Notes: generated by a model not told the origin, from the letters alone. DNA of 64,000 nt from Polyangiales bacterium (GCA_038231275.1 JBBRLQ010000012.1:1-64000); one strand, 5' to 3'; positions 9,277 through 57,070 are shown, numbered from the stretch's first letter. Program-made: numbers and translations.

Positions 9277-9286
9277 GTCCCTCGGG

Positions 9287-10642
9287 TCACGTCAGCATGT
9301 CGTCGAGCGCATGATCGACCGGCAAGCCGAACGGCGCGGCCACCGTCGTGTCGATGCCGAGCTTCTTCCTGAGCGCACGCTGGACGTGGGCGGGAAGGAT
9401 GCGGGTCGCCGTCGTGTCGTCGTACGCCTTCACCACGCTCGGATCGTTCGGATCGACGGGAAGCGGACGCAGCTGATCGTCGGTCGCTCCGAGGACACGT
9501 CCTCCTCGAATGCCGGGGCCCGCCAGCAGGATCGACGTCACGTTCCAGTGATCTTTTCCCTTGTCGACGTTGTAGCCCGGCGTCCGGCCGAAGTCGGAAC
9601 CCACCATCAGATAGAGCCGGTTCGAGAGTCCCATGGCGTCGGCCGTGGCGAGCACGTACCGAATCGTCAACGCGAGCATTCCGAGCTGGCGCGTCTGATT
9701 TCGGTCGTGATCGCGGTGCGTGTCGAAGCCGTCGAGCCCGAGGCTCGCGCTCGCGGCGAGCCCCGAAGCGAACGCGTGAAGCGCAAGCTCCCCCGCCTGC
9801 AGGTAGCGATCGAGCTCCTGGCTGTTGTAGTTGGCGGTCGCCAGCGCCGGGAACGCCGTGGCGCCCGTGACCGGTTTGCTCGGGAGCTGCTGCGCCAACG
9901 CACCCAGCGTGCCCATGCGCTGCTGCGCAGAGACGAGCGTCGCGACCGCGTCACCATCACGCTTGGAGCCCGCGCCCTTGGCGAGGCGATCGAGGCGCGT
10001 CGCTTGTGCGGCAGCGATGCGCGCGAGCGTGTCGGCGCTGTGGTAGGTGCGCTGCGATGCGGGCGGCGCGTCGGGGTTCACGACGTGAGGCAGGAACGAC
10101 TGCTTCGCCGCCCCCTGATTGGAGAGACGCGTGAGCTGCACGATGTTGCCCGTCGCCTCGTAACCGCCCGCGCTCAAATACGCGATGGGAAGCGGCGAGG
10201 ACGCCGAGCCGTTCGCCGCGATGAGGGCAGCGAGCGTGGGCAGCTCCTCGCTCGACTTGCCGCTCCAAACGTTCTTGGTGCCGGTGTCGTGGTTGTTGGT
10301 CTGGGTGTCGACCCCGTTGATGACGAGCAGCCTGCTCCCGAGCGCCGTGAAGAACGAGGGCGCGTCGTCGAGCTTCACGCTGCCGTCCATGAGATCGACG
10401 GGCGCCGCCGACACCGCTCCGACCTGGGTCGGGCTCGTGTACAGGTTTTGCTGGATGTCGGCGGTCGGCGCCTTCGCGTTGCAGAAGAGCGTGGGGTCCC
10501 ACCCTCCGCCCGCGTGAATCGTGAGGACGAGCGGACCGGTGTACCCGGCGTCCGCGCGCAGCCCTCGAAACGAAGGGAGCGCGAGGCTGAGGACACCGAG
10601 GCCGCCGGCCTGGAGGAGTCTGCGTCGGGAAAGGTGGATCAT
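9287..10642 (-). CDS. DUF1501 domain protein, Tat-exported
   Basis: Tat motif SRRRLLQ; GGGWD, FDTH, SDFGRTP, GKDHW, GPGIRGGRVLGATD. Confidence 0.88.
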   Translation of the reverse strand: MIHLSRRRLLQAGGLGVLSLALPSFRGLRADAGYTGPLVLTIHAGGGWDPTLFCNAKAPTADIQQNLYTSPTQVGAVSAAPVDLMDGSVKLDDAPSFFTALGSRLLVINGVDTQTNNHDTGTKNVWSGKSSEELPTLAALIAANGSASSPLPIAYLSAGGYEATGNIVQLTRLSNQGAAKQSFLPHVVNPDAPPASQRTYHSADTLARIAAAQATRLDRLAKGAGSKRDGDAVATLVSAQQRMGTLGALAQQLPSKPVTGATAFPALATANYNSQELDRYLQAGELALHAFASGLAASASLGLDGFDTHRDHDRNQTRQLGMLALTIRYVLATADAMGLSNRLYLMVGSDFGRTPGYNVDKGKDHWNVTSILLAGPGIRGGRVLGATDDQLRPLPVDPNDPSVVKAYDDTTATRILPAHVQRALRKKLGIDTTVAAPFGLPVDHALDDMLT

Positions 10643-10656
10643 GCGGTGCTCCGTGC

Positions 10657-13101: not shown

Positions 13102-13266
13102 GCCGTTTAGGTTACCGGTCGACGACCCGCGGCCCAGGATCCGCAGACATCTGCCTCGTCGAATTGTGCGTGCTGAGGCGACAGGCAGCGTCGATGTCGC
13201 CCTTTGGCATTTTTTCGTCGAGTGTCGGGTACCCGGCCGCTTTGGTACCTGACCACGCCGGGTTCG

Positions 13267-13872
13267 TCAGCCGACGTTTTCCCAGCGAAACCCCAGCACC
13301 ATCGAGCGCGCTGCCACGTCGCGCTCCTCGACGCTCGCGGCACCTCGCCGTCCCGTCACGTTGAAGAGGGCGACCATGGTCGCGGGGACCGAGTCCATCC
13401 AGCCTTCCGCACGCGCGAGGCATCGCGGCAGGCCCTCGAAGCGCATCCGCAGCGACGCGTCGCTCGTGACCTCGACCTCGATGCGCGTCGCGTCGCGGTA
13501 AATCTGCGTCCACGCGCGCGGCGTCCAGCGCAGGATCCGGCCCGGGTCCACCCCGAAGAGGCGCACGGCGCTCGACAGCAGCGTATTGAGCAGCGTGCTG
13601 TCGAAGTCCGCGACGCCGAGGCGCAAGAAGAACATCTCGCGCCCGCCTCGCCCCAGCGCGTTCCACGCCACCTCCGTGGCGCGCGCGTTGATGGTCATCG
13701 GGAGCCACGCAAGCGTCGACGACTCGCGGATGAGCGCCATATCCTCGGTCGGGATGCCGCCGAGGATCACGTCACGCTTCGAAGGCTCCTGCGCCTCGAC
13801 GCAGCGCAGGAAGTTCTTCATATGGCGCGCGCGCACACCCTCTGTCGTCGTGGCCGTCTGGACCGTTTGCAC
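13267..13872 (-). CDS. Hypothetical protein (myxobacterial DUF2378-like)
   Basis: Protein-like ORF with an AWLP motif and a C-terminal FRW, resembling expanded myxobacterial families. Confidence 0.5.
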   Translation of the reverse strand: MQTVQTATTTEGVRARHMKNFLRCVEAQEPSKRDVILGGIPTEDMALIRESSTLAWLPMTINARATEVAWNALGRGGREMFFLRLGVADFDSTLLNTLLSSAVRLFGVDPGRILRWTPRAWTQIYRDATRIEVEVTSDASLRMRFEGLPRCLARAEGWMDSVPATMVALFNVTGRRGAASVEERDVAARSMVLGFRWENVG

Positions 13873-14030
13873 GCAGGCCTCCCCCGCATGCGTACGGTCG
13901 CGCGCGCGCTTGCTTTAGCTTCGGCGTACGAACTTACGACGCCGCGGGATCACCGGCAGCGCGAGACCCTCCGGCGCGAGCACCGCATGGTAGTCTCGCG
14001 GGCCGTGGTCGCACGTTTGCGGAGGATGCC

Positions 14031-14405
14031 ATGCACAGGAGCCGTCTCGCCGGGTTCATCATCGACTGCAAGGACACGGAGCCCTCGCGCGGCGCCGCGT
14101 TCTGGAGCCAGGCGCTCGGAATGCCGTCGCGCGGCGCGGAGGGCGAGCTGTACGAGTGCCTCGATGCGTCCGCGCGCGACCTCGTCGTCGAAATCCAGAA
14201 CGTCACGCACGAGAGCCGCGTGCACCTCGATATCGAGAGCGACGACATCGACGCCGAGGCGACACGCCTCGAGGCCCTCGGCGCGCGCCGTGTCGGCAAA
14301 GTGAAGACGTGGTGGTTGATGGAGGCGCCGACCGGCCAGCGCTTCTGCGTCGTGCGGGCGAAAGGCGACTTGACGAGCGCCCCCGGCGCGGGCGTGTGGC
14401 CGTGA
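14031..14405 (+). CDS. VOC/glyoxalase family protein
   Basis: IIDC...AAFWSQALG, RVHLDIESDD, WWLMEAPTGQRFCVV. Confidence 0.9.
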   Translation: MHRSRLAGFIIDCKDTEPSRGAAFWSQALGMPSRGAEGELYECLDASARDLVVEIQNVTHESRVHLDIESDDIDAEATRLEALGARRVGKVKTWWLMEAPTGQRFCVVRAKGDLTSAPGAGVWP

Positions 14406-14457
14406 TCGCTTAATCCCTCCTCTGCGTGCGCCGTTTCCAAGGTCGGAGGAACAGCAC

Positions 14458-15411
14458 GTGGCAAGCATCGACGGGAACCTCGAGGCGATTCGCCGGGTAC
14501 GGTGGATGGAGTTCTGCGCCATGGGCAGCGCCATCTCCGTCGTGATCGAGGACGTCGAGCACCGCGCGGTGCTCGAAGAGATCCCGCGATGGTTCACGCG
14601 CTGGGACCGCGCGCTCAACCGCTTCTTTCCGCACAGCGAGCTCGCGCGTCTCAATGCAGAGGCCGGCAAGGCGCTCAAGGTGAGCGCGACGCTCTGGAGC
14701 GCGCTCGAGACGGCGCTGTGCGCGGCGCACTGGTCGGACGGGCTCGTCGCACCCACCCTCCTCGACGCGATCGAGTCCGCCGGCTACGATCGCAGCCTTG
14801 GCCTCACGGGCGAGCCGCCGCCATCCTCCGTAGAGCGGGCGAGGAGGCGGGCCCAGGATTGGCGCGCCATCCAAACGAACCCCGTCACCCGCACCGTGAC
14901 GCTACCCACGACCGCGCGCGTCGACCTCGGCGGGATCGCGAAGGCCTGGGCTGCCGATCGTGCGTGCGCGCGCCTCGCGGCGTTCGGCGCTTCGATGATC
15001 GACGTCGGCGGAGACATCGCGATCAGCGCACCGCGCAAGAACGGCACCCCGTGGCCGGTCGTCGTCGCCGATCCGCGCAAGCCCGGCAAAGAGCTCCTGT
15101 CCCTCCACCTCTCGCGCGGCGGCGTCACCACGGTGGGGCGCGATTTCCGCAAATGGCAGCAAGGCGGCGCGTGGCAGGAGCACATCATCGACCCGCGGAC
15201 GCACACCGCGACGGCCACCGATGTCCTCACCGCCACCGTGATCGCCGAGACGGCCGTCGAGGCCGACGTCGCCGCGAAGACCATCGTGCTTCGTGGCGCG
15301 CGCGACGGCCTCGCGTGGATCGAGAAGCAGGACGGCCTCGGTGCGGTCGTCGTGACCGACGCCGGTGAGATCCGCATGAGCGCGCGCGTCAGTCCCTACC
15401 TCGCCGCCTGA
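14458..15411 (+). CDS. apbE: FAD:protein FMN transferase
   Basis: AMGS, SELARLN, DLGGIAKAWAAD, DVGGDI, HIIDPRT. Confidence 0.9.
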   Translation: MASIDGNLEAIRRVRWMEFCAMGSAISVVIEDVEHRAVLEEIPRWFTRWDRALNRFFPHSELARLNAEAGKALKVSATLWSALETALCAAHWSDGLVAPTLLDAIESAGYDRSLGLTGEPPPSSVERARRRAQDWRAIQTNPVTRTVTLPTTARVDLGGIAKAWAADRACARLAAFGASMIDVGGDIAISAPRKNGTPWPVVVADPRKPGKELLSLHLSRGGVTTVGRDFRKWQQGGAWQEHIIDPRTHTATATDVLTATVIAETAVEADVAAKTIVLRGARDGLAWIEKQDGLGAVVVTDAGEIRMSARVSPYLAA

Positions 15412-15884
15412 GCGGCCAGCGCGAGGAAGCCGTCGCGGTCCAGCGATCGCACGTCGGCGGGCAAGCGCGCGGCCGGCACGAGCTCGCCGCTCCCGTAACG
15501 CCACGCGCCGGCTTCGCGCACGAAGCGTGAAAGCTCTGCGAAGGACCGATCGTCGCCGCGCTCGAAGACGCGCGCGTAGAAGAGCACCTCGCCCGTGTCT
15601 GCGGTGGTCGATGTATGTAAAATACACAGATCGAGGAAGCGCTGGGTCTCTTTGGCCCGGGAGAGCTCGCGCGCCAGGTCGGCCGCCGGCACCGCACGAT
15701 CGGGGTGCGAGGCGGCGAGGGTCTGGACGAGGTAGCCGCCCAGGCCTCGTGCGAACGCGGCAAAGCGCGAGCGCATGAGGGCCTCCGGCGTCTCGGCGCG
15801 CGCGACGCCCGCGTGGATCGGGCCGCAGCAGGCCTTGTAGCGCTTGCCCGAGCGGCACGGACACTCGGCGGACGGGCCCTTCAC
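15396..15884 (-). CDS. ychJ: YchJ family (SEC-C motif) protein
   Basis: CPCRSGKRYKACC, PEALMRSRFAAF, ELSRFVRE.G.WRY. Confidence 0.9.
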   Translation of the reverse strand: MKGPSAECPCRSGKRYKACCGPIHAGVARAETPEALMRSRFAAFARGLGGYLVQTLAASHPDRAVPAADLARELSRAKETQRFLDLCILHTSTTADTGEVLFYARVFERGDDRSFAELSRFVREAGAWRYGSGELVPAARLPADVRSLDRDGFLALAAQAAR

Positions 15885-15927
15885 GGGATCATCCTACCAA
15901 CCTGCCGCGCGCCCCGCATTTCATCGT

Positions 15928-15963
15928 TAGAGCAAGCGTCGTTGCTACGTAACGCTTGCTCTA
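15928..15963. repeat. 12-bp perfect inverted repeat (TAGAGCAAGCGT / ACGCTTGCTCTA) with a 12-nt spacer
   Basis: Read directly from the sequence between the divergent ychJ and GreA-like genes. Confidence 0.8.
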
Positions 15964-16032
15964 GCCTTCAGGTGGGTCGCTCCAGTCGTTTGCCCGTCAC
16001 GGTCAAACGACTTCCGCTAAAAAAGCTCACGC

Positions 16033-16524
<492 letters not shown>

Positions 16525-16533
16525 GCGCTGCGG

Positions 16534-17970
16534 CTACGCGTCGCCCGTGACCGGCGCGCGGCCGAGGTGCCCCTTCGCGACCTTCAGGAAGCGTGCGCGC
16601 GCGGCGGCGTGATCGACGATGGGGCGCGGGTAGTTCTCTCCGAGGCGAACGCCGGCCTCGGCGAGGATCGCGGCGGGCGCCTCGGCGGGGCGATGAATGT
16701 ACTTTGCATGCATCCGCGCGAGCTCGGGAACCCATCGGCGAACGTAGCCGCCTTCCGGATCGAAGCGCTCGCCCTGGCTCGTGGGGTTGAAGACGCGAAA
16801 GTAGGGCTGCGCGTCACACCCGCAGCCCGCCGACCATTGCCACCCGGCGTCGTTCTGCGCCCAGTCGCCGTCGGTGAGGTACTTCAGGTAGTGCGCCTCG
16901 CCCAGCCGGAACGAGAGGAGGAGGTGCTTGGTCAGGAAGCTCGCCGACACCATACGCGCGCGGTTGTGAACGTAGCCCTCGGCGAGGAGCTGCCGCGCCG
17001 ACGCGTCGACCACCGGGTAGCCGGTCCTGCCCTCGGTCCACGCGCTCCACGCCGCCGCGTCGTCGCGCCACGGGAATCCCTCGAAGTCACGCCGAAACGG
17101 TCGCTCGAGGAGCTCCGGCCGCGTCCACAAGAGGCCGTGCGCGAAATCTCGCCAAAGGAGCTCGTCGTGGAACTTCGTGCGTTGCTCGGGGGCGTCGGCC
17201 AACGCCTCCCCCGCCGCGTTCCAGAGCGATCGAATCGACACCGTGCCGAACTTCAAGTCCGCGGAGAGCCGGCTCGTCCCCGCGCGATCCATGCGATCTC
17301 GATCCACGACGTAGCTGCGCGCCGCGCCAGCGAAGAACGCCTTCATCCGCGCGCGGCCCTCGCGCTCGCCCCCCGCAAGGACGTGCGGATTCTTCGGGAT
17401 GCCAAGGGACGCGAGCGTCGGGATCGGCGCCTCGTCCGCCTTCACGTCGACCGGAACCTTCGGGAGCGCGCGCGGCGCGGGGATCGCCCGCGCGACGTCG
17501 ACCTGCGCGCGAAACGCCCGCGCGAACGGCGTGAACACGGCGAACGGCGTATCGGCCCCCGTGCGCACGGACGCCGGCGGCGCGAGCAGCTCGCCTTCGT
17601 AGAGGACGAACGGCACCCGGAGCGCCGCCTCCACGCGCCGATCGCGCTCGCGCCCGAACGGCTCGGTCCAGCGATGGGCGACGACGCGATCGACCCGCCA
17701 GCGTGCCGCGAGCGCCGGCACGATTTCCGTGCTCTTGCCGGCGACCATGAGGAGACGCGATCCAAGGTGCGCGAGGTTCGCCTGGAGCGCCTCGAGTGAC
17801 TCGAGCAAGAACTGCATTCGGTGCGGCAGCGCCTGCGCGCGCTCGGGCGCGAAAAAATACGGGTCGAGGACGAACAGCGGGACCACCTCGCCGGCGGTGA
17901 CCGCATCGCGGAGAGGGGCGTGGTCGCTCACGCGAAGATCCTTGCCTCGGAACCAGACCAGCGTCCTCAC
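16534..17970 (-). CDS. phrB: Deoxyribodipyrimidine photolyase (cryptochrome/photolyase family)
   Basis: WFRGKDLRVSDH, TSRLS, ELLWRDF, GRTGYPVVDA, HNRARM, GWQWSAG, FRVFNP. Confidence 0.95.
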   Translation of the reverse strand: MRTLVWFRGKDLRVSDHAPLRDAVTAGEVVPLFVLDPYFFAPERAQALPHRMQFLLESLEALQANLAHLGSRLLMVAGKSTEIVPALAARWRVDRVVAHRWTEPFGRERDRRVEAALRVPFVLYEGELLAPPASVRTGADTPFAVFTPFARAFRAQVDVARAIPAPRALPKVPVDVKADEAPIPTLASLGIPKNPHVLAGGEREGRARMKAFFAGAARSYVVDRDRMDRAGTSRLSADLKFGTVSIRSLWNAAGEALADAPEQRTKFHDELLWRDFAHGLLWTRPELLERPFRRDFEGFPWRDDAAAWSAWTEGRTGYPVVDASARQLLAEGYVHNRARMVSASFLTKHLLLSFRLGEAHYLKYLTDGDWAQNDAGWQWSAGCGCDAQPYFRVFNPTSQGERFDPEGGYVRRWVPELARMHAKYIHRPAEAPAAILAEAGVRLGENYPRPIVDHAAARARFLKVAKGHLGRAPVTGDA

Positions 17971-18045
17971 TGGGCGGCGATCCTACCCAACGCGGTCCCC
18001 CCTTGCTATACGCGGCGGGCGGCGGGTGGCGCGCAATGGAGAGTC

Positions 18046-18762
18046 ATGACGAACGAAGCGTCTCCGGTGGTCGTATACGGGATCGGCGGCCTCGCGGTCG
18101 TCGTCGCCGCGCTCGTCATCGCCGGCATCGCGCGTGCGCACGTCGGCCGTCGTGGCGTGCTGATCGCGCTCGTCGTCGCCGCGGCGTGGCTCGGCCTCAC
18201 GGGTGTGCTCGCGGAGAGCGGCGTGCTCCTCCGAATGGACGCGCGACCGCCGCCGCTGCTTCTCGTGCTGGTCGCCTCGATGGGGATGGGCGCCGCTATC
18301 GGTTTTTCTCGGCTCGGGGTCGCGCTCGCGCGCGAGGTCCCGCTCGTCGCGCTGGTCGCGCTTCAGTCCTTTCGCCTCCCGCTCGAGCTCGTGATGCATG
18401 AAGCGGCGAAGGAGGGAACGATGCCCGTTCAGATGTCCTTCACTGGCTACAACTTCGACATCGTGACGGGCGCCGGCGCGGTGCTCGTCGCCGTCCTCCT
18501 CGCGACGGGCCGCGCACCGCTATGGATCGTGGGCCTCTGGAACACGATGGGCGCGGCGCTCCTCTTGATCGTCATGACGATCGGGGTTGCGTCGACCCCG
18601 CTCATCCATGCGTTCGGTACGGACCCGGCGCACGTGAACACGTTCGTCGGTCAGTTCCCGTTCGTGTGGCTCCCCGCGGTGCTCGTCGCGACCGCTCTCG
18701 CGGGCCACATCGTGATCGCGCGCCGCCTCAAGAGCGAGCTCGCGGTCGCCGCGCTTCAGTGA
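18046..18762 (+). CDS. Conserved integral membrane protein
   Basis: About 7 TM segments; LQSFRLPLE, GYNFDIVTG, FPFVWLP. Confidence 0.75.
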   Translation: MTNEASPVVVYGIGGLAVVVAALVIAGIARAHVGRRGVLIALVVAAAWLGLTGVLAESGVLLRMDARPPPLLLVLVASMGMGAAIGFSRLGVALAREVPLVALVALQSFRLPLELVMHEAAKEGTMPVQMSFTGYNFDIVTGAGAVLVAVLLATGRAPLWIVGLWNTMGAALLLIVMTIGVASTPLIHAFGTDPAHVNTFVGQFPFVWLPAVLVATALAGHIVIARRLKSELAVAALQ

Positions 18763-19187
18763 GCGTAGAGCGTCCGGCAGCTCCGCCCGATCTCGAGCTT
18801 CTTCATCCGGCGTGAGACGAGGACCTTCGCGAGCGCGTTGCCCTTGTCGTCGACGAGCGTGACCGGCAAGGTCCCGTCGCGCTCGCGTGCCGCGCTGCCG
18901 CTGGCGTCGCCGAGGAAGCGGCCGAGGCTCTCGGTCTTGAAATTCGGCGGCTCGCCGTAGGCGAGAAGCGCGACGTCATGGCAGAGGTTGATGACCTCGA
19001 CCGGCGGGCGCGGCCGATGGGGCTCCGGCTCCGGCTCCGGATCGGCGACCGGCGCGGCCCCCGCGTCGGCCGAGGAGACCGCGTCCTCGAAGTGTGGGGG
19101 GTTGGACGCGGCGGAGGGCGCGTTGGTCGGCGGCGCGGAGGCGCACGCGGCGAGGAAGGCGAGGAAGGCGGGCGAGAGGGCGCGCAT
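18756..19187 (-). CDS. Putative lipoprotein
   Basis: Lipobox LAAC, Pro-rich linker, small Cys-containing C-terminal domain. Confidence 0.6.
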   Translation of the reverse strand: MRALSPAFLAFLAACASAPPTNAPSAASNPPHFEDAVSSADAGAAPVADPEPEPEPHRPRPPVEVINLCHDVALLAYGEPPNFKTESLGRFLGDASGSAARERDGTLPVTLVDDKGNALAKVLVSRRMKKLEIGRSCRTLYAH

Positions 19188-19285
19188 GCGCACGAGTATA
19201 CCCGAGGCGCCGGCCTCCCCGGAACGCATGTGCAGGCCCTCACCGGCGCGGCGCGCCGGGCGCAGGCGCCTTATGATGTTGGACC

Positions 19286-19942
19286 ATGGGTCTCTTCTCC
19301 GACGCAAAGCTCCGCATGCCGACCTCCGACGAAGCGCTCCCCGGGCGCAGCGAACGGATGGCCGTCGCCAAGACGCACACCGTGAAGGGCACGAACATGG
19401 AGCCCCCATTCCCCGAAGGGATGCAGCTCGCCATGTTCGGGATGGGCTGTTTCTGGGGCGCCGAGCGCAAGATGTGGCAGGTCGAAGGTGTGTATTCTAC
19501 ACAGGTCGGCTACGCCGCCGGGCAGACGCCAAACCCAACGTACCGCGAGGTCTGCAGCGGCCGGACCGGTCACAACGAGGTGGTCCGCGTCGTCTTCGAT
19601 CCGAAAATCGTCTCGTACGAGGCGCTCCTCAAGGTCTTCTGGGAGAGCCACGATCCGACGCAAGGAATGCGGCAGGGCGGAGACACCGGGACGCAGTACC
19701 GCTCGGGCATCTACGCCTTCGGTCCCGAGCAGAAGGCGGTCGCGCTGGTCTCGAAGGAGGCGTACGGCAATGCGCTCGCGGCGGCCGGCCACCGGCCGAT
19801 CACGACCGAGGTGATCGACGCGCCGGAGTTCTACTACGCCGAGGATTATCACCAGCAGTACCTCGAGAAAAACCCCGACGGGTACTGCGGGATCGGGGGC
19901 ACCGGCGTCACGTGCCCCGTGGGTCTCGGTACGCGGGTCTGA
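19286..19942 (+). CDS. msrA: Peptide methionine (S)-sulfoxide reductase
   Basis: [33 protein letters not shown]. Confidence 0.97.
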
Positions 19943-34065: not shown

Positions 34066-36519
34066 TCAGCGCGGGCACGCCGTGGGGTAGAGGAGGTATT
34101 TGTCGCGCTTCACACGAAACGCCGCGAGCTCCTTGTCCCACGTCGCCTCGATCTCAGGCAGCGTCTTGCCTTGCGCGATCGCGTCGAGCGCCGCGCGGTT
34201 CGCGAGGAGGCGATTCACGTCGTCGAAGTGCCACTTGCCGGCGTGGAGCGTCCGCAAATCGCTGGCCAGCGCGAGGCCGGCGCGTACCGGCTCGAAGCGC
34301 GCGCGATCGGTGACGGTGATGCGAACGCCCGAGCAGCGCTCGCCCTTGTACGGCGCCGCCTGCGGAGTGAAGGTGGTCGCGGCGAACGAGACACCGGGGA
34401 TCCCGCGACCGGTCAGCGCGGCGGCGAGCACAGGCCCGTCGACGAACGGCGCGCCGACGACCTCGAACGGCGTGTCGGTGCCGCGACCGACGGAGAGGTT
34501 CGTCCCCTCGACGAGCCCCACCGCCGGATAGAGGAGCGCCTCGGTGACGCTGCGGAGGTTGGGTGACGGGTTCACCCACGAGAGGCCCGTCGCTTCGAAA
34601 TAGTCGCCGCGCCGCCATCCCTGCGCCGCCACCACGTCGAGCGTCGCGCCGAGGTGGTCCTCCGCATCGAAGAGGAGCGCGAGCTCGCCGATCGTCATCC
34701 CGTGGCGAACGGGCAGCGGGCCGTGGTGCACGAAGCTCTTGGACGCCGCGTCGACGAGCGGACCGGCGACGTCGAGGCCGTCGATCGGATTGGGCCGGTC
34801 GAGGACCATGAAGGCCACGCGCGCGAGGCTGGCCGCCTTCATCGCGCGGCGCAGCGTCGACGGGTACGTGTAGTAGCGCGTGCCGACGTCCTGCACATCG
34901 AAGACGAGGACGTCGAGCCCCTCGAGCGTCTCTGGCGGCGGCGCGAACGTGGCGCCGTAGAGGCTCACGACCGGGAGGCCCGTGGTCGCGTCGCGCCCGT
35001 CGGGGAGGAGCCCCTCCTTGTCGGCGCCGAGGCCGTGCTCCGGCGTGAAGATGCGCACCAGCGTCATGCCCGGCGCGGTCGCGAGGAGATCGATCGTGCG
35101 CGTCCCGTCTTTCGCGCGCCCCGACGCGTTGGTGAGGAGGCCAACCTTCTTCCCGCGCAGGCGCAAAAAACGCTCGGCGCGCAGGACGTCGATCCCCGTC
35201 AGGACGTCGCGCCCGTCGTGCTCGCACGGCGACGGCGTGCGCGCGAGACCTGCGACCTCTGCGGCGATCGTTCCGATTTTCGCCTCGAGCTCGTGGACGG
35301 CGCCGCGCCCGTACGGGTGAACGCGGTTGCTGAGGAAGAGGACGAACAGGTCCGCGTCCGGATCGATCCACAGCGACGTACCGGTGAACCCGCCGTGGCC
35401 GAACGCGTGCCGGGAGAGGCCCTCACCGCGGTGCTTGGTGAACGCGCTCGACATGTCCCAGCCGAGCGCACGGATTCCGCCGGGCACGTCGTGCGGCGCG
35501 AGGAACGCGGCGAAGGTCGACGGTGAGACGACGCGCGCGCCGGAAATCTGGCCTTTCCCGAGCCACGCCTGCGCGAAACGAGACAGGTCGCGCGCGGTGG
35601 AGAAGAGGCCCGCGTGACCCGCGACGCCGCCGAGCGCGTAGGCGCGAGGATCGTGGACCTCGCCCTGCATGAAGCCGGCGTCGGGGCGCATCTCCGTCGG
35701 CGCCGCGCGGGCGCGCATCGGCTCGGGCGGCGTGAACGACGTCTCGCGCATGCCGATCGGCGCGAAGACGTTCTCGGCCGCGAAGGTCGCCACGTCCTTT
35801 CCGCTCACCCGATGGACGAGCTCGGCCAACACCATGAAGCCGACGTCGGAGTAGACGAGGCGCTCGCCGGCGGGCCATCGCGCCGGCGCGTCGAGGATGC
35901 GTCGCCACGCCTCGTCCGGTCCGCGCGCGAAGTCGCTCATCGGGTTGTCGGCGACGAGCCCTCCCACGTGAAGGAGCAGCTGCCGCACGGTGGTGGCCCC
36001 TTTCCCTCCGTGCGCGAACTCGGGAAGGTACGTCGCGACCGGCTCGTCGACGGCGACTTGCCCGCGATCGACGAGCACCATCACGCTGGCCGCCGTCGCG
36101 ATCGGCTTGGTGAGCGACGCGAGATCGAACACGGTGTCGATCTGCATCGGCAGTCGCGCCGGCGCGAGCGCGCGCTGCCCGAAGGCGCGCTTGTAGAGGA
36201 TCTCGTCCTTTCGCCCCACCACGACGACGCAGCCGGGCATCTTGCCCTCGACGAGCGCCGCCTCCGCCGCGGCCGCGATGCCGGCGAAGCGCGGGTCCTC
36301 GACGGAAGGACCCGCGAAGGGATCGGTAGCGGCGCCGTCCGCAGCAAACGCGGTGGCCGCCTCGACGTCGGCGTCGGAAACGAACGCGCCGGCGGCTCCC
36401 GAGGAGACGGGAGCGACCGGCGCGCGGGCATCGGGCGGCGGAGACTCGGCGCAGAACGTCAGGAGCGCGCCGAGGATGATCGGAGCGACGACGAGAGCAG
36501 CGCGAAGCGCGCGGGCCAC
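34066..36519 (-). CDS. Serine hydrolase (beta-lactamase-like) fused to a DUF1343/NamZ-type exo-beta-N-acetylmuramidase
   Basis: FDLASLTK (SxxK), YSD, HGGFTG; then GIDVL, PEHG, DVQDVGTRYYTY, LDRPNP, PSPNL, EGTNLSVGRGT. Confidence 0.9.
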   Translation of the reverse strand: MARALRAALVVAPIILGALLTFCAESPPPDARAPVAPVSSGAAGAFVSDADVEAATAFAADGAATDPFAGPSVEDPRFAGIAAAAEAALVEGKMPGCVVVVGRKDEILYKRAFGQRALAPARLPMQIDTVFDLASLTKPIATAASVMVLVDRGQVAVDEPVATYLPEFAHGGKGATTVRQLLLHVGGLVADNPMSDFARGPDEAWRRILDAPARWPAGERLVYSDVGFMVLAELVHRVSGKDVATFAAENVFAPIGMRETSFTPPEPMRARAAPTEMRPDAGFMQGEVHDPRAYALGGVAGHAGLFSTARDLSRFAQAWLGKGQISGARVVSPSTFAAFLAPHDVPGGIRALGWDMSSAFTKHRGEGLSRHAFGHGGFTGTSLWIDPDADLFVLFLSNRVHPYGRGAVHELEAKIGTIAAEVAGLARTPSPCEHDGRDVLTGIDVLRAERFLRLRGKKVGLLTNASGRAKDGTRTIDLLATAPGMTLVRIFTPEHGLGADKEGLLPDGRDATTGLPVVSLYGATFAPPPETLEGLDVLVFDVQDVGTRYYTYPSTLRRAMKAASLARVAFMVLDRPNPIDGLDVAGPLVDAASKSFVHHGPLPVRHGMTIGELALLFDAEDHLGATLDVVAAQGWRRGDYFEATGLSWVNPSPNLRSVTEALLYPAVGLVEGTNLSVGRGTDTPFEVVGAPFVDGPVLAAALTGRGIPGVSFAATTFTPQAAPYKGERCSGVRITVTDRARFEPVRAGLALASDLRTLHAGKWHFDDVNRLLANRAALDAIAQGKTLPEIEATWDKELAAFRVKRDKYLLYPTACPR

Positions 36520-44590: not shown

Positions 44591-45252
44591 ATGCACCTCT
44601 CTCCTCGCGATCTCGACAAGCTGATCCTGCACGGCGCGGGCGTGCTCGCGCAGAAGCGCCTCGCGCGTGGCCTTCGCCTCAACTACCCCGAGACGATCGC
44701 CCTCCTCGCGACGCAGCTCCTCGAGCTCATTCGCGACGGCCGCTCGGTCGCGGAGCTGATGGACCTTGGCCGGCGCATGCTCGGCCGCGCGAACGTGATG
44801 CCCGGCGTCGGCGCGATGATCCACGAGGTTCAAGTCGAGGGCACGTTCCCCGACGGCACGAAGCTCGTGACCGTGCACGAGCCGATCGCGCTCGATCATG
44901 GAGACCTCGCGCTCGCCTTGCATGGCTCGTTCTTGCCGATCCCGCCGGCCTCGTCGTTCCCGTTCGACGCGGCGAAGGAAGACCCCGTCACGCCGGGCGC
45001 GTTCGAGGTGAAGCCCGGCACTATCGAGCTGAACCCCGGCCGCCCTGCGACGCAGCTCTCCGTGAAAAATACTGGGGATCGTCCCATCCAGGTCGGCAGC
45101 CACTACCCCTTCGCCGACACGAACTCCGCGCTCCACTTCGATCGCGCGGAGGCGCAGGGCAAGCGCCTCGACATCCCCGCCGGCACCGCCATCCGCTTCG
45201 AGCCCGGCGACGAGCGCACCGTCGACCTCATTCCGTGCGCGGGAGCTGCGCC

Positions 45253-45256
<4 letters not shown>
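44591..45256 (+). CDS. ureA: Urease fused gamma-beta subunit
   Basis: [11 protein letters not shown]...[12 protein letters not shown]...[14 protein letters not shown] (gamma) joined to [14 protein letters not shown]...[15 protein letters not shown] (beta). Confidence 0.95.
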
Positions 45257-46968
<1,712 letters not shown>

Positions 46969-52717: not shown

Positions 52718-53044
52718 TCGCGCGCGTCTGGACAAACTCGTCCGTAGTGCGCACGTTGCGGAGCACTCGAGGCTCTCGGGGCGAAGTCATCTGCGCACCA
52801 AACCGCGCTGCCGCCCGCACCCTCACAACGTTTTTTCGGCCGAAACGCCGAGGCACCTTTCAGACAATTCGCATCGGTCCACGGCGACGTGCGGCTTCTC
52901 GTTCGTTCATCCGTTCGAGAAGGCGCACGACCGCCGGAATGAGCCCACGCCTTCGGCGTGACGCGCAGCCGGGGAGCCACGTTTGCTCCACGCGCCGATG
53001 CACCGTTTTCCCGCGCCCATCCGGCAAGGCCCCACAAGCAAGCT

Positions 53045-53141
53045 CGGAGATTGTTGGTTCGACTCCAACCGGCTGCACCGCGTTCTCGGACGCTCTCGCA
53101 CGCAGCTGTAGCCTAACGGTAAGGCACCGGCCTCTTAAGCC
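53045..53141 (+). ncRNA. Circularly permuted tRNA-Lys(CUU)-like domain; probable YrlA-type Y RNA (true RNA ends unknown, probably wider)
   Basis: The 3' half comes first: GG, AGATT, T-arm GTTGG-TTCGACT-CCAAC, CGGCTGC, ACC (53046-53079). The 5' half follows: GCAGCTG, TA, D-arm GCCT-AACGGTA-AGGC, A, CCGGC-CTCTTAA-GCC (53102-53141). It lies upstream of a TROVE-vWA-like gene. Confidence 0.8.
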
Positions 53142-53321
53142 AAAAGCCATGGCTTTCCCACTCGGGCGTGGGCAATTCTTTTCAAAAGATCGAGATCACC
53201 GCCGCGTGGACGCCAAACGTTCGCGCGCCCGAGCCGCAGGTTAAATCGGGCACACGAACGGCGGCCGCGCGTCCCGCGGCGGGGTTCTCTCAGTTATTCT
53301 TCCCTTCCTTCGGAGGTCCCC

Positions 53322-55094
53322 ATGAACACGAACCAGACGCGCGCGCCCCTTCCGGAGTCGCAGCTCGGGCCTGCCGAGCGGCTGCTCGATCTCGTGCTCA
53401 ACTCGTCGGCGCACCTCTGGCACAACCGGCCGGGGCTCGACGTCCGCGGTGTGTGGCACGCGGCCCGCGGCGCGAAGGTGCGCGGCACCGCCGCGAAGCC
53501 GGGCCTCTTCGTTCCGGCGGCGCGCGGCCTCTACGCGCGCCTCCTCGAGATCTACACGCTCAACGCCGATCTCATGGCGCACTTCGCGTCGTACGCGCTC
53601 CTCGAGACCGAGTGGCGCGATCTGAAGGTCGCGTGCGCCGCGCTCATGCTCGTTCAGGGCAAGAGCGGCCAGCCGATCAAGGAGGACCTTGCCAAGGGCG
53701 CCGCCGTCGCGTTCTACGACGACGACTACCGTGCGATCGGCGAGGCGATGGTCCTCTTCTACGCCAAGAAGAGCACCAAGATGCTCACGCCCAAGGGCGT
53801 GCTCCGCGTCGGGGAGCTCCTCGAGGTTCCGGAGATCGCTGCGCTGAACCGCGCCGCGGGATTCGGCGACGCGACGGGCGGCAAGGCGCCGCTCGGACGC
53901 TGGAAGCGCGCGGCCACCAAGTGGCTCGCCGCGCGCGAGAAGAACCGCGTGATGCTCGAGGGCCTGGTCCGCGCCGGCTACAAGGAGACCATCAAGAAGA
54001 TCGCCCGAAAGGCCGGCTACAAGCCGGAGACGCAGGCCTTCTTCGAGATCCTCGGTTGGAAGCAGAAGCAGGCGGACGGCGGTCACCGCACCGTCGGCCT
54101 CGGCGCCGACCTCAAGCTGGAAAAGCGCGAGCGCTTCGACGGCGTGAGCGAGGCCGAGATCTGCGAGCGCATCGAGCAAGATCGCCTGTCGTACAAGGAC
54201 GTCGTCGGGCGCCTGCCCAAGGACGTCGGGCTCACCCCGGCGATCATGGTCGCGCTCCTGCCGTCGCTCAGCGATCGCGATCTGCGCATGCTCACCCCCA
54301 CCCTCGAGGAGCTCGGGCTCATGACCGAGCCGGAGATCCGCGCGAAGTGGGAGAAGGCCATCCTCTCGTCGACCGACCAGCGCTCGCTCACCACGGCCAA
54401 GAACGTGAAGAGCAAGGCGCTCAAGGAGAAGCTCGAGGAGGCCGCCGACAACGCCGCGAAGAACGCGGTCAAGGCGGCGACCAAGGACAGCGACGTCCGC
54501 GTCATCTTCCTCGTCGACAAGTCGGGGAGCATGACGAACGCCATCGAGCAGTCGAAGGAGGCGCTCTCGCGAATCCTCGCCGGTTTCCCTGGAGAAAAGC
54601 TGCATGTTGCAACCTTCGACACGACCGGGACGGTCCTCCGCCCCAAGGCGGCGTCGCGGGCGGCGGTGCAGCACATGCTCCAGGGCATCACGGCCGGCGG
54701 CGGCACGATGCACGGCGCGGCGGTGCGCGCGCTCCACGAGGCGGGCGTGTCTTTCCCCAAAGAGAGCAAGCTCGTCGTCATCGTGGTCGGAGACGAGGCG
54801 GGCGAGACCGGCGAGCAACTGGCCCACGCCTTCCGCGCCTTCGGCTTCGACGTCGCGGCGCTCGCGCTCATGCTCCCCTCGCAGGCGGGTCGCGGCTACA
54901 CGGTCCGAAACTGCGCGACTGCGCTGGGCATCCCGTTCAGCGAGGTCACGCTCGATCAGTTCGCCGATCCGTATCAGGTGACCCGCGTCCTCACAGCCCT
55001 CCTCGAGGCGCCCAAGATGATCGCGGGCCCCGTGAAGCAGGCGGGCTGGGTGGAGAAGGTCATGAAGACCAAGCTCCTCGAATTGCCCAACTAG
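53322..55094 (+). CDS. Divergent Ro60/Rsr-like protein (TROVE-like helical domain + C-terminal vWA)
   Basis: The vWA MIDAS (FLVDKSGSM, GGT, VVGDE) is clear. N-terminal LMAHFASYAL..WRDL...AAL, PLGRWKRA..KWL and LRML..LEELG echo TROVE blocks. Adjacent to a Y-RNA-like element. Confidence 0.65.
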   Translation: MNTNQTRAPLPESQLGPAERLLDLVLNSSAHLWHNRPGLDVRGVWHAARGAKVRGTAAKPGLFVPAARGLYARLLEIYTLNADLMAHFASYALLETEWRDLKVACAALMLVQGKSGQPIKEDLAKGAAVAFYDDDYRAIGEAMVLFYAKKSTKMLTPKGVLRVGELLEVPEIAALNRAAGFGDATGGKAPLGRWKRAATKWLAAREKNRVMLEGLVRAGYKETIKKIARKAGYKPETQAFFEILGWKQKQADGGHRTVGLGADLKLEKRERFDGVSEAEICERIEQDRLSYKDVVGRLPKDVGLTPAIMVALLPSLSDRDLRMLTPTLEELGLMTEPEIRAKWEKAILSSTDQRSLTTAKNVKSKALKEKLEEAADNAAKNAVKAATKDSDVRVIFLVDKSGSMTNAIEQSKEALSRILAGFPGEKLHVATFDTTGTVLRPKAASRAAVQHMLQGITAGGGTMHGAAVRALHEAGVSFPKESKLVVIVVGDEAGETGEQLAHAFRAFGFDVAALALMLPSQAGRGYTVRNCATALGIPFSEVTLDQFADPYQVTRVLTALLEAPKMIAGPVKQAGWVEKVMKTKLLELPN

Positions 55095-55117
55095 AATAGC
55101 GAGGAGAGAGGAACGCT

Positions 55118-56086
55118 TTGGCCGACTACCGAAAGTTCCTCTCCAAGGTCGAGACGAGCGTGCTCCCGTATTTCGGCGGCACGCGCGTCGACACCTCCTC
55201 ACGTCGCTTGCGTCTCCCGAGCGCGCTGGACGCGCCCGGCTGGTACACGTTCGAGATCAAGGGGCGTGAGGCCTTTCCGAAGGATCCGGCGGACGCGCCG
55301 GATCTCTCGGACCTACCGCTCGCGCGCGGTCACGTCGTCGGGCGCTGGCTCGTCGGCGACAACGCGGGCGCGGTGGAGATGGAGCTCTTTTCAGAAGAAG
55401 AGCCTCCGGTGCTCGCGCCATGCCGCGCGCGCGTTTGGTACGGGGGAGAGGTCCTCTTCGAGGGCCTCGACTTCGAGGGCGAAGCCGAGCTATCCGCGCG
55501 CGAAGCGCTGGAGGATGGCCGCTCCCTCGAGGGCATCAAGGGCGTCGGCGCGCCGTTACGGGCCGCGTTCGCCTACGCGGTGCTCGCACGCACGTCGCGC
55601 GAGCTCACCATCCCATTCTCTCCAAAAGAAGTACGAAAGGATCTCCTCACCATCGCTGGAACTGGGCCCGACGGCGCCGCGAGTTCGCTGCGCCGCCTCG
55701 AGCACGAGCGACGCATGTGGCGCGCGCTTCACCCCGAAGAGGCCCTCCTGCGCGGAGAGGCTCCTCCTCCCGTTCGCCACCACGGCCCCCAGCCGACGCT
55801 CGCGAACGCCGAAGAACGCGCCGACGCCGCCCTCGAAGCGGCAGGCGCGCGCCTGCTCGCCGTCCGTCGCCTCGGCGATCGCCAGCTCGAGGTTCGGTAT
55901 CGCTTCATGGACGAGCGCTTCGTCACCGTGTGCGACGCGCTCACGCTGCAGATCCACGACGCCGGCGTCTGCCTCGGTCACGGCGAAGAGCGCGGCGATC
56001 GCCTGCTCACACTCGAGAGCCTTCCGTCCGTCATCAAGGAGGCGATCGACACCGACGTCCTCGTCATCACTCGCGGCTTCGCTTGA
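55118..56086 (+). CDS. Hypothetical protein with a C-terminal E2/UBC-like Cys motif
   Basis: TTG start with a purine-rich RBS. C-terminal IHDAGVCL...TLESLPSVI resembles the E2 G-x-C-L active site and following helix. Confidence 0.5.
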   Translation: MADYRKFLSKVETSVLPYFGGTRVDTSSRRLRLPSALDAPGWYTFEIKGREAFPKDPADAPDLSDLPLARGHVVGRWLVGDNAGAVEMELFSEEEPPVLAPCRARVWYGGEVLFEGLDFEGEAELSAREALEDGRSLEGIKGVGAPLRAAFAYAVLARTSRELTIPFSPKEVRKDLLTIAGTGPDGAASSLRRLEHERRMWRALHPEEALLRGEAPPPVRHHGPQPTLANAEERADAALEAAGARLLAVRRLGDRQLEVRYRFMDERFVTVCDALTLQIHDAGVCLGHGEERGDRLLTLESLPSVIKEAIDTDVLVITRGFA

Positions 56087-56166
56087 AAGGAAGGACTCGC
56101 GCGTGAACAAATCGGCGGCCAGCTCGTCGAAGCAGAAACGTTCTCACCGAAGAAAGGCGGCATCCC

Positions 56167-56409
56167 ATGGCGATTCTGAACATCACGTACAACGGTCTGT
56201 CGGCGGACTACCCGCTCGACATGAACTACGACCTGTCGGACGCCGACGTCCGGCGTATCGCGCTCGAGGTCGTGCGTTCGGGCGGCGTCGGCGGCCTCCA
56301 GATCGCGAACCTCGACGAGCGCGCCTTCGCGGCGCACGTGATCGACCGGTTCCAGGGCCAGGACGGTGCCCCGCGCATCTACCTGCGTCCCAAGGTCCCG
56401 TTCGGTTGA
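56167..56409 (+). CDS. Small ubiquitin-like (beta-grasp) candidate ending in Gly
   Basis: 80 aa; beta-beta-alpha-beta pattern; C-terminal IYLRPKVPFG; directly upstream of an E1 gene. Confidence 0.6.
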   Translation: MAILNITYNGLSADYPLDMNYDLSDADVRRIALEVVRSGGVGGLQIANLDERAFAAHVIDRFQGQDGAPRIYLRPKVPFG

Positions 56410-56412
56410 ATT

Positions 56413-56466
56413 TCGTTTGGAACGAGTCTTTTCAGTGGAATCTACTGAAAGGATTCGTTCGAACGA
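56413..56466 (+). promoter_or_regulatory. Long AT-rich intergenic RNA hairpin (about 25 bp)
   Basis: TCGTTTGGAACGAGTCTTTTCAGTGG pairs with CTACTGAAAGGATTCGTTCGAACGA using G-U wobbles and one bulge. Confidence 0.75.
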
Positions 56467-56482
56467 TTCCATTGAAAGGAGC

Positions 56483-57070
56483 ATGCGGGTGCGGATCGTG
56501 TTCTGCGGCGTGGGCGCGCTCGGCTCGACGGCGGCGGTCCTGTGCCGAAACCTGCCTTCGACGCTGGCGTTCGTCGACTTCGATCGTGTCGAGGCGAAGA
56601 ACCTCGCGGCGCAGGCGTACGTCAAGCCGTCCATCGGGAAGAACAAGGCCGATGCGCTGAAGCTCCAGCTGCTGAATTTCTACGGCATCAAGGCGGAGGC
56701 GTTCGGCGTCCGGCTGGGCGCCGAGAACGTCGCGACGCTGCTCGGCGCCGCGGATCTGATCGTCGACGCGTTCGACAACCAGGCGAGCCGGCTCGTCCTG
56801 TCCACCTATGCGCGTGCGGCGAGAAGGGCGCTCGTGCACGGCGCGCTCTCGGGCGACGGGACGTTCGGCTTGGTCCGTTGGGACGAGCGCTTCGTGCCCG
56901 ACGCCGAGGACGAGGCGGGCCAGGCCACGTGCGAGGGCGGCGAGCACCTGCCGCTCATCGGTCTGCTTGGCGCGGCGCTCGCGCGCGCGATCCAGGATTT
57001 CGTGAAGAGCGGCGCGCGGCGCGACTCGATGGTGAGCCTCGCGGCGGTGACGCCGACCGCGTCCACGTGA
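56483..57070 (+). CDS. ThiF/MoeB/E1-like adenylyltransferase
   Basis: GVGALG, DFDRVE.KNL..Q, GKNKA, DAFDN..SR; a single Cys in ATCEG; no Zn-binding CxxC pairs. Confidence 0.9.
   Translation: MRVRIVFCGVGALGSTAAVLCRNLPSTLAFVDFDRVEAKNLAAQAYVKPSIGKNKADALKLQLLNFYGIKAEAFGVRLGAENVATLLGAADLIVDAFDNQASRLVLSTYARAARRALVHGALSGDGTFGLVRWDERFVPDAEDEAGQATCEGGEHLPLIGLLGAALARAIQDFVKSGARRDSMVSLAAVTPTAST

Follow-up and report, generated by a model that had tools for sequence, protein, structure and literature searches.

Can a bacterial Ro60-type ribonucleoprotein particle (RNP) be joined to a system for tagging proteins? The question is raised by a locus in a 64,000-nucleotide stretch of DNA from a Polyangiales bacterium (GCA_038231275.1 JBBRLQ010000012.1:1-64000; the whole stretch is called the window in the following), in which a Y-RNA-like RNA, a 590-residue protein with a vWA domain (the Ro-like protein), a 322-residue protein with a DAGVCL motif (p322), an 80-residue ubiquitin-like (Ubl) candidate and a ThiF/E1 enzyme follow one another on the + strand (table 1). 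These five co-oriented elements had been noticed in a sequence-only reading of the window, and all five are found as described. With moderate confidence, we favour the reading that the locus is a divergent bacterial Ro60-type RNP joined in one operon with a minimal Ubl activation/conjugation module. The locus is real and conserved, and probably a new variation on the Ro/Y-RNA theme. The Ro/Y part of this reading is solid because three independent lines agree, namely the fold of the protein, the architecture of the RNA together with its sub-threshold YrlA matches, and the adjacency of RNA and protein genes on the same strand; functional coupling to the Ubl module is supported by the gene order in deep clades, by a phage copy and by the occurrence of Ubl and E1 after a second Ro-like paralogue.

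Relatives were collected by scanning one genome per species, which yielded 285 pattern matches, 230 of them encoding a relative; the best 80 of these 230 were taken with 6-kb flanks (loci L001-L080), and the phage copy is L081. Locus counts refer to 81 loci including the window, each denominator being the number of loci with enough sequence to tell. The record titles of the 80 loci name myxobacterial taxa or generic (delta)proteobacteria, and one names Comamonas; in this last record (L079, BNCN01000002.1, Comamonas sp. KCTC 72670) the gene order is that of the Myxococcus loci L070 and L078, and the title is possibly a mislabel. At E<=0.001, 1231 homologues of the Ro-like protein were found among 8000 candidates scored, along with 298 of p322 and 1159 of the 80-residue protein, those with names being Myxococcota (Archangium, Myxococcus, Corallococcus, Hyalangium and Labilithrix). 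Hundreds of homologues for each protein, the bias in G+C content at third codon positions (0.81-0.93 in the called frames, in a G+C-rich window) and an RNA structure with compensatory changes in 49 copies place the locus beyond what chance would produce.

Gene order across the family

Clustering of open reading frames (ORFs) combined with tblastn gives the usual order as RNA, Ro-like, p322, JAB, Ubl and E1. The p322 gene is found within 600 nucleotides of the Ro-like gene in 62/69 loci and anywhere downstream of it in 65/69, a JAB gene is present in 53 of 58 loci, and Ubl and E1 are each present in 26/55. All four proteins (p322, JAB, Ubl and E1) occur in 25 loci, which are spread over deep clades of the Ro-like tree rooted on the phage copy; the genes flanking the system differ between lineages, and its distribution on the tree looks vertical. 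In 30 loci, including the window, the match to E1 starts between 6 nucleotides before and 143 nucleotides after the end of the Ubl match. Three loci (L043, L050 and L065) contain a second Ro-like paralogue, which has no p322 or JAB gene and is followed by Ubl and E1 3-5 kb on, and in one Archangium locus (L035) Ubl and E1 lie approximately 3 kb past JAB. The linkage is conserved in other genomes: the system recurs across Myxococcota and in a phage, and Ubl and E1 are both nearby in about half of the loci (24/55).

The Ro60-like protein

The C-terminal part of the 590-residue protein is recognized by Pfam as VWA_2 (residues 394-491, 1.8e-10), and the residues of its metal-ion-dependent adhesion site (MIDAS), i.e. 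D399, S401, S403, T462 and D491, show no variation in 32 sequences. In an AlphaFold2 model based on 32 homologues, a helical TROVE-like region is predicted at approximately 1-385, followed by the vWA domain with a complete MIDAS. When this model was compared with the PDB by Foldseek, ranks 1-11 were all Ro60/TROVE structures (491-582 aligned columns, E 2e-8 to 2.3e-6, probability 1.00), among the top entries being 9kop (‘Trove domain’, E 2e-8, TM-score 0.56), Xenopus Ro with RNA (1yvp), Deinococcus radiodurans Rsr (2nvo) and a Thermus phage Ro60 (9l5y); after rank 11 the matches are isolated vWA domains. By its predicted fold and its context the protein is Ro60-like, a candidate rather than an established member of the TROVE family. 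Across families, the Ro-like proteins are 66-75% identical.

The Y-like RNA

The RNA encoded upstream of the Ro-like gene in the window reads as a permuted tRNA mimic, in which a T arm, a closed acceptor-like stem and a D arm following U8-A9 are enclosed by a terminal stem. The distance between the T-arm and D-arm motifs is 30-61 nucleotides in 18 copies from 15 sources, and conserved strands flank the two motifs (5' GCGCCC..CCGAnGAGGCCCnACAcGCA; 3' GGCUUCnUCACUCGGGCGC plus a U-run). RNAalifold applied to a hand-picked alignment of 17 copies returned 31 pairs in five helices, with compensatory changes at 19/31, and a covariance model built from these 17 copies (R1) gave 93 matches at E<=0.01 in the window and the 80 loci, some of the weak partial ones being genuine tRNAs. 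In the 49 matches at E<=1e-16, 96.2% of the positions concerned are paired and 24 of the 31 pairs show changes on both sides, and all five helices are backed by compensatory changes; none of 500 shuffles reached any of these measures, and slid controls were 36-48% paired. The 49-copy alignment was fitted to R1 and therefore favours the structure, and the 17-copy alignment made by hand gives the same picture.

Of the 78 loci with sufficient sequence 5' of the Ro-like gene, 41 have a same-strand copy no more than 1.6 kb upstream of it. Copies are single or in tandem, with up to five model matches upstream in L080. In 24/49 copies, a stem of 4-5 base pairs with a 7-nucleotide loop follows the D arm directly and resembles an anticodon arm, which implies that the Ro-type stem exits at the position of the variable loop. 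A second topology, in which a Y-type stem surrounds an unpermuted tRNA-like domain, is found in at least five copies in four loci (table 1), which ARAGORN labels tRNA-Met, tRNA-Arg or tRNA-Ser; in the one of these inspected by hand, in L057, the top three acceptor pairs are mismatched. The array of L080 holds both topologies. At the site in the window, neither ARAGORN nor Rfam at gathering thresholds reports an RNA, and the Rfam tRNA model scores 19.9 bits.

As described in the available part of Chen et al. (2014, PMC4201824), YrlA RNAs carry a T arm, a closed acceptor stem and a D arm in this order, enclosed by a stem formed by both ends, and a 5' motif GNCGAAN0-1G. The RNA family described here has the same order of arms within an end-to-end stem and, in some of its copies, a CGA-containing 5' motif, which takes the strict GNCGAAN0-1G form in 15/49 copies and a loose form in 31/49, the window copy reading UCCGGCAAG in its place. 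Like YrlA-type RNAs, which are expected within 4 kb of a Ro60 gene and on its strand, it stands just upstream of the Ro-like gene in the same orientation, and tandem and phage-borne copies are a further feature in common with bacterial Ro60/Y RNA systems. Rfam YrlA (RF02553) gives sub-threshold matches in all five related loci tested (25.2-47.2 bits, best E 1.5e-7), 6/7 of these matches spanning the full model. What sets the family apart from YrlA is the anticodon-arm-like hairpin in about half of the 49 copies and the existence of unpermuted copies. The proposal of a Y-RNA-like permuted tRNA mimic is thus upheld by a conserved family with compensatory changes, by the YrlA order of arms and by the sub-threshold YrlA matches.

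Other elements upstream of the Ro-like gene were observed in some groups of loci. In the Labilithrix-type loci L006, L014, L016, L017, L021 and L056 no tRNA-like RNA is found upstream; several loci of this type have a short, conserved G+C-rich hairpin region with a GUCGGGAGCC core approximately 150-300 nucleotides upstream of the Ro-like gene, and L021 and L056 contain a GCCCyACACGC motif, like the 5' strand of the Y RNA. This hairpin region may be a reduced Y RNA. In the Myxococcaceae-type loci L013, L053, L060, L070, L078 and L079, a gene for a calcineurin-like phosphoesterase (Pfam Metallophos, 1.2e-14) stands between two copies of the Y-like RNA, approximately 700-900 nucleotides upstream of the Ro-like gene. 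Phosphoesterases are common in RNA-repair operons.

The Ubl candidate, E1 and JAB

In the 80-residue protein, R70 and the segment Y72-G80 (YLRPKVPFG) are invariant in 29 sequences, and in 25 of the 29 aligned homologues a tail of 1-8 variable residues follows the Gly, the window protein ending exactly at Gly80. An invariant Gly followed by a variable tail is, as far as sequence can tell, the pattern of a modifier precursor, and in this respect the 80-residue protein behaves like a Ubl precursor family. The candidate, a putative beta-grasp modifier, has no match in Pfam, NCBIfam or PADLOC, its profile gives one chance match in the PDB, and in the ESM Atlas it falls into Myxococcota clusters of its own only.

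The E1 assignment is confirmed by Pfam (ThiF, 9.6e-20) and by adenylation motifs: GxGAxGS, DFD, KN, FDN and ATCEGGxHLP, the last with a Cys, are invariant in 32 distinct homologues. PDB sequence matches are to Uba4, MoeB and ThiF, and NCBIfam matches are to ThiF/MoeB models, all far below their cut-offs (best 78 bits vs 159). In PADLOC-DB 2.0, generic ‘E1-E2’ models match the E1 (best 4.1e-15), the other five proteins having been scanned without a match. A PRTRC cassette was considered and set aside, the ThiF model of that system being generic and hitting the E1 at 28.9 bits vs a cut-off of 144.75.

JAB, which the sequence-only reading left out of its cassette along with the tRNA-array context, is in related loci a protein of approximately 128 residues with the motif E...HSHPxGPxxFSxxDxxTM (JAMM, E...HxHx7SxxD), conserved in 56 distinct sequences; its Pfam Prok-JAB match is weak (1.7e-4) and below cut-off. 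The gene is absent from the window, where 80 nucleotides separate the p322 and Ubl genes and tblastn finds none. Across loci, tail and JAB occur together in 23, and neither occurs in two (the window and L014); a tailless Ubl is accompanied by JAB in three loci, and a tailed one has no JAB nearby in four. In L008 (3179-4172) and L012 (8805-9796), E1 follows JAB directly, and the fetched sequence contains no Ubl gene.

Could this set of proteins serve sulphur transfer rather than conjugation? In this chief alternative, Ubl-E1(-JAB) would be a sulphur carrier system of the ThiS/MoaD/CysO/TtuB type that thiolates tRNAs or the Y RNA, with Cys285 of p322 acting as a persulfide relay. The E1 is indeed of the minimal MoeB/ThiF-like kind, with ThiF, MoeB and Uba4 as its best NCBIfam and PDB matches, and, at 195 residues only, lacks a separate catalytic-cysteine or ubiquitin-fold domain. 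Around the system there are tRNA-like RNAs and tRNA arrays, and in Thermus and archaea Ubl/E1/JAMM sets have been connected with the thiolation of tRNAs, according to the available part of PMC3980101. Known sulphur carriers end in Gly-Gly. The Ubl candidate, however, ends in Phe-Gly in 29/29 sequences, no rhodanese, cysteine desulfurase or PP-loop thiolase was found by Pfam among the conserved neighbours, and the ThiF/MoeB matches in NCBIfam stay well short of their cut-offs. Sulphur transfer is regarded as a rather improbable function.

p322

The model of p322 (AlphaFold2, pLDDT 86.3, pTM 0.80) predicts a beta-rich region at residues 1-120, then a helical part that includes a low-complexity, variable linker, and finally a C-terminal domain at approximately 228-322. 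The C-terminal unit is predicted to consist of a helix (231-241), four strands (245-281), Cys285 and a further helix (302-311). Cys285, in the DAGVCL motif, is invariant in 30/30 aligned homologues, as are D281, G283 and L286. We take the order of these elements and the G-[IV]-C-L context to resemble a UBC core, and we infer a possible E2 role for p322 from the position of its gene and from the cysteine. The protein matches nothing in Pfam, NCBIfam, PADLOC or PDB sequences, and the ESM Atlas gives no usable match; a profile search yielded 736 representatives, the 150 best of which are all of the same family (approximately 300-380 residues), with no bridge to a known family. The N-terminal half has a weak, non-significant likeness to OB/S1-type modules in Foldseek. 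In favour of calling p322 E2-like, as was done at the outset, are the invariant Cys and the order of secondary-structure elements; neither Foldseek nor profile searches return a UBC match.

Conjugation may also do without an E2, as in archaeal SAMPylation, with p322 as an RNA-binding or adaptor subunit or the main target and its Cys as a metal-binding or redox residue. Indeed, p322 is tied to the Ro-like gene (62/69) far more tightly than to Ubl/E1, and stays beside Ro-like and JAB in the clade in which Ubl and E1 are elsewhere; the missing UBC-fold match and the beta-rich N-terminal half with its OB/S1-type likeness fit the same idea. Set against this are the location of the Cys in an invariant D-x-G-x-C-L directly after a four-strand meander flanked by helices, and the phage, which keeps p322 together with Ubl, E1 and JAB. 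An E2-free scheme is thus judged unlikely, if less so than the other alternatives considered here.

The phage copy and the tRNA arrays

A tblastn search of the Ro-like protein against phage records gave one match, in the 197-kb Caudoviricetes record KX853510, at 36% identity over 98% of the query. This record carries homologues of all five proteins (36-53% identical) and a Y-like RNA within approximately 11 kb; the family hidden Markov models score 457 (Ro-like), 129 (p322), 68 (JAB), 48 (Ubl) and 182 bits (E1), the associated E-values referring to the ORFs of one locus. The order at 5067-19819 is tRNAs, Ro-like, p322, a DHH/DHHA1 phosphoesterase, JAB, Ubl, E1, the Y-like RNA (59.4 bits, just past the E1 region) and another tRNA, 30 tRNA genes standing directly upstream of the Ro-like homologue and a ThiF-like gene approximately 7 kb downstream of it. 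The cysteine motif of p322, the JAMM motif and the Cys motif of E1 are all kept, and the phage Ubl retains RPKTPFG and continues for another 60 residues. In the record, the genes for the Ro-like protein and p322 lack annotation as coding sequences. Plasmid copies were also considered and discarded, as the matches are partial, at 24-30% identity over 22% and 56% of the query.

Bacterial loci can be embedded in tRNA genes as well: by ARAGORN, four loci (L040, L050, L058 and L065) have dense arrays of 17-24 of them next to the system, and in L043 an array begins there, i.e. in 5/80 loci, which come from at least three families. The window contains one distant tRNA-Ser only (34433-34519).

Bacterial E1-E2-Ubl-JAB cassettes act in defence (e.g. 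Bil and CBASS Cap2/Cap3). A role of this kind in anti-phage defence (or, in the phage, in counter-defence), with the Ro/Y RNP sensing tRNA cleavage, would suit a set of genes that is found complete in a phage beside a tRNA array and in five bacterial loci within such arrays, and whose E1 is matched by the PADLOC E1-E2 models. It sits poorly with the high conservation of the proteins and their vertical-looking distribution, with the ordinary metabolic neighbours in the window (urease, SDR and HMG-CoA synthase) and flanks that vary by lineage, and with the finding that PADLOC matches nothing beyond E1; a role in defence is considered doubtful.

Weighing the evidence

Several observations tell against a Ro60-type RNP coupled to a Ubl module. 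Neither Ubl nor E1 is present in 27/55 loci, a count that covers the fetched 6-kb flank alone, from which genome-wide absence does not follow, and on the Ro-like tree the loci without nearby Ubl/E1 make up one large clade, of Myxococcaceae and Archangiaceae, to which L035, L043, L050 and L065 also belong. In the lineage of the window and of its closest relative L001 (Ro-like 91% identical) the cassette appears, from the sequences, to be eroding, since the window lacks JAB, and L001 (8418-8993, 9285-10500) has a 5'-truncated JAB overlapping the end of p322 and no E1 after the Ubl gene. As to the Ro-like protein, the quality of the model is moderate (pLDDT 71.9, pTM 0.48), TM-scores to Ro60 are 0.35-0.56 with root-mean-square deviations of 8-11 A, and a profile of the family run against PDB sequences retrieves vWA proteins only. 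Pfam TROVE (PF05731) matches 0/32 family members even at E<=10; of the TROVE plus vWA composition expected for this protein, a Ro60/TROVE-like fold is found by Foldseek and vWA by Pfam, and TROVE is not found by sequence.

The RNA and p322 add to these points. An R1 match within 1.6 kb upstream of the Ro-like gene is missing from 37/78 loci, so that the upstream RNA looked for in the neighbourhoods of homologues is found in just over half of them, and two Labilithrix loci have no RNA match even with the search filters off. No copy reaches the Rfam YrlA gathering score (69 bits), and the window copy, whose acceptor loop has a 25-nucleotide insertion, gives no Rfam YrlA match at E<=10. With the whole model of p322, Foldseek finds nothing at E<=0.001 in the PDB and BFVD, and a profile of the C-terminal domain run against the PDB retrieves no E2, chance-level WD40 matches being the only ones.

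The loci without Ubl and E1 in the fetched sequence, and the loss of cassette parts in the lineage of the window, are also what would be seen if a Ro/Y RNP and an unrelated Ubl/E1 pair were chance neighbours. This is very unlikely in view of the same order in 25 loci over deep clades with differing flanks, of the phage, which keeps all parts within approximately 11 kb at 36-53% protein identity, and of the Ubl/E1 genes that follow the second Ro-like paralogue in L043, L050 and L065.

A possible mechanism

In the favoured reading of an RNP joined to a conjugation module, the Ro-like ring would act like Ro60 and hold the stem of the Y RNA along with the ends of other RNAs. By analogy with the Deinococcus Y RNA and PNPase, p322 would be recruited through the tRNA-like domain of the Y RNA, through the MIDAS of the vWA domain or through both. 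E1 would adenylate Gly80 of Ubl and hand it over as a thioester, to its own conserved Cys and/or Cys285 of p322, and Ubl would then be joined either to the Ro-like protein or to proteins sitting on captured RNAs; JAB, where present, would trim the Ubl precursor and remove conjugates. A function in the surveillance of tRNA or translation RNAs, perhaps in a phage-host conflict over tRNAs, is suggested by the mimicry of tRNA, by the arrays of tRNA genes next to some loci and by the occurrence of the system in a phage.

A bolder version, to which we give little credence, makes the Y RNA itself an E3-like specificity factor, held by its stem on the Ro ring and docking charged p322 or E1 through its tRNA-shaped domain. 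If so, whatever protein, or even RNA 3' end, threads into the Ro ring would receive the tag; the two topologies, and tandem copies that differ in their anticodon-like loops, would serve as alternative adaptors, and for phages the use of the system would lie in protecting or re-routing the tRNA pool of an infected cell. The roles put forward in the sequence-only reading, an E3-like RNA adaptor and a sensor of RNA damage, are speculative.

Relation to known systems

As far as the source is available (Chen et al. 2014, PMC4201824), the known roles of bacterial Ro60/Y RNA are the tethering of PNPase in Deinococcus, where the Y RNA tethers Ro60 to this enzyme, and co-regulation with RtcB. With bacterial Rsr the Ro-like protein shares, by predicted fold, a helical ring-type domain and a vWA/MIDAS domain, and it differs from Ro60/Rsr in having no Pfam TROVE match. 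In contrast with the Salmonella rsr-yrlBA-rtcBA and the Deinococcus Rsr-Yrn1-PNPase arrangements, the partners here are p322, JAB, Ubl and E1, not RtcB/RtcA or PNPase.

On the side of the Ubl module, TtuB/TtuC of Thermus and SAMP/UbaA of archaea are minimal Ubl-E1-JAMM systems that serve both tRNA thiolation and protein conjugation (Shigi 2014, PMC3980101, in the part of the text available). Within the same limit, the systems TtuB/TtuC, SAMP/UbaA/HvJAMM1 and Urm1/Uba4 have in common with the present one a small MoeB/ThiF-like E1, a carrier with a C-terminal Gly, a JAMM protein, the lack of a canonical E2/E3 and a link to tRNA. The carrier described here differs from those of TtuB/TtuC, SAMP/UbaA and Urm1/Uba4 by ending in Phe-Gly and being often tailed, and a Ro-like RNP and p322 are linked to it instead of a thiolase or sulfurtransferase gene.

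Prokaryotic E1-E2-Ubl-JAB operons (Iyer et al. 2006 and Burroughs et al. 2011, as cited in the accessible text of PMC7159879) likewise have co-oriented E1, Ubl and JAB genes, and the cysteine protein of the present locus stands at the position expected for E2. Unlike those operons, the locus has no RING/E3, has an RNA and a Ro-like protein tied in, and is chromosomal with a vertical-looking distribution; furthermore, p322 matches no Prok-E2/UBC Pfam family, PADLOC E1-E2 model or solved E2. The vWA-MoxR/FtsH ‘ternary’ conflict systems, which carry a Ubl tri-ligase module (Kaur et al. 2020, PMC7159879), offer, in the portion of that article available, another case of a vWA protein coupled to JAB-E1-Ubl in developmentally complex bacteria. 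Their MoxR/FtsH AAA+ ATPases, RING E3, Ubl-E2 fusion and effector-associated domains have no counterpart here, and no RNA or TROVE-like domain features in them as described there. The nearest item found is a preprint on Nidhogg viruses of Asgard archaea, whose genes include ones for a Ro60 and for three E1-like proteins; these are not connected with each other in the part of the preprint available (10.1101/2021.07.29.454249). In the literature, within a partial coverage that leaves room for a prior mention, no description was found that links Ro60/TROVE or Y RNAs with Ubl, E1 or JAB.

Layout of the locus and neighbouring features

The gaps between the four ORFs are, in order, 23, 80 and 73 nucleotides, and the RNA, in the same orientation, has its 3' end 141 nucleotides upstream of the Ro-like gene. 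The E1 frame is open from a GTG at 56366, which would give a 234-residue version; the start is likely the ATG at 56483, since a Shine-Dalgarno-like GAAAGGAG precedes it and the resulting 195 residues equal the median length of the homologues. Pfam finds no domain in p322 or in the 80-residue protein.

The start of the RNA had been put at 52888, which is approximately 100 nucleotides too early and takes in an unrelated hairpin. This hairpin (52882-52936, + strand), strong, G+C-rich and without a U-run, lies 5' of the Y-like RNA, and its 3' edge alone is kept in L001. According to Pfam, the flanks of the locus in the window are ordinary chromosomal genes, for urease subunits, HMG-CoA synthase, a short-chain dehydrogenase (SDR), a hydrolase, a trypsin-like protease, a DUF72 protein and an ECF sigma factor. 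An Rfam match to ‘5_ureB_sRNA’ (45433-45690, - strand, 72.6 bits, above gathering) is antisense inside the urease alpha-subunit gene (45235-46968, + strand), and most likely reflects conserved urease coding sequence, not a small RNA gene.

Table 1. Positions of the elements of the locus in the window, of the parts of its RNA, and of tRNA arrays and unpermuted RNA copies in related loci (numbered within each locus).
Feature	Position	Strand	Basis or remark
Y-RNA-like RNA	52995-53181	+	covariance model R1, 132 bits, E 2.1e-35
Structured core of the RNA	53013-53169	+	read from sequence
Terminal stem	53013-53018/53164-53169 and 53023-53031/53151-53159	+	
T arm	53053-53069	+	GTTGG-TTCGACT-CCAAC, perfect
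Acceptor-like stem	53070-53076/53102-53108	+	7 base pairs, closed by a 25-nucleotide loop
D arm, after U8-A9	53111-53125	+	GCCT-AACGGTA-AGGC
Weak hairpin at anticodon position	53129-53141	+	3 base pairs
Terminator-like stem and U-run	53157-53181	+	site 53157-53172, U-run from 53176
Ro60-like protein, 590 residues	53322-55094	+	vWA by Pfam, fold by Foldseek
p322, 322 residues	55118-56086	+	TTG start; family-specific; candidate thioester carrier or adaptor
Ubl candidate, 80 residues	56167-56409	+	ends at invariant Gly (RIYLRPKVPFG)
Minimal E1, ThiF/MoeB family, 195 residues	56483-57070	+	Pfam ThiF
tRNA array, L040	1591-5167		
tRNA array, L050	12176-13695		
tRNA array, L058	4123-4608 and 10093-12174		
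tRNA array, L065	11733-13745		
tRNA array, L043	13303-13712		start of array
Unpermuted RNA copies, L057	5628-5786 and 5807-5964		
Unpermuted RNA copy, L072	5830-5968		
Unpermuted RNA copy, L036	3238-3395		
Unpermuted RNA copy, L080	5040-5200		

Implications

The Ro60 family would be extended by these proteins to members that are invisible to Pfam TROVE and that surveys relying on TROVE annotation will have overlooked. The conserved Ubl-module partner gives a biochemically testable idea of what the tRNA-like domain of YrlA-type RNAs recruits, and the embedding in tRNA arrays, together with the phage copy, ties the system to phage-host conflict over tRNAs. If the proposed coupling is true, bacterial protein tagging would be connected with an RNA-surveillance particle, with parallels in eukaryotic ribosome quality control and in the old association of Ro60 with Ro52 (TRIM21).

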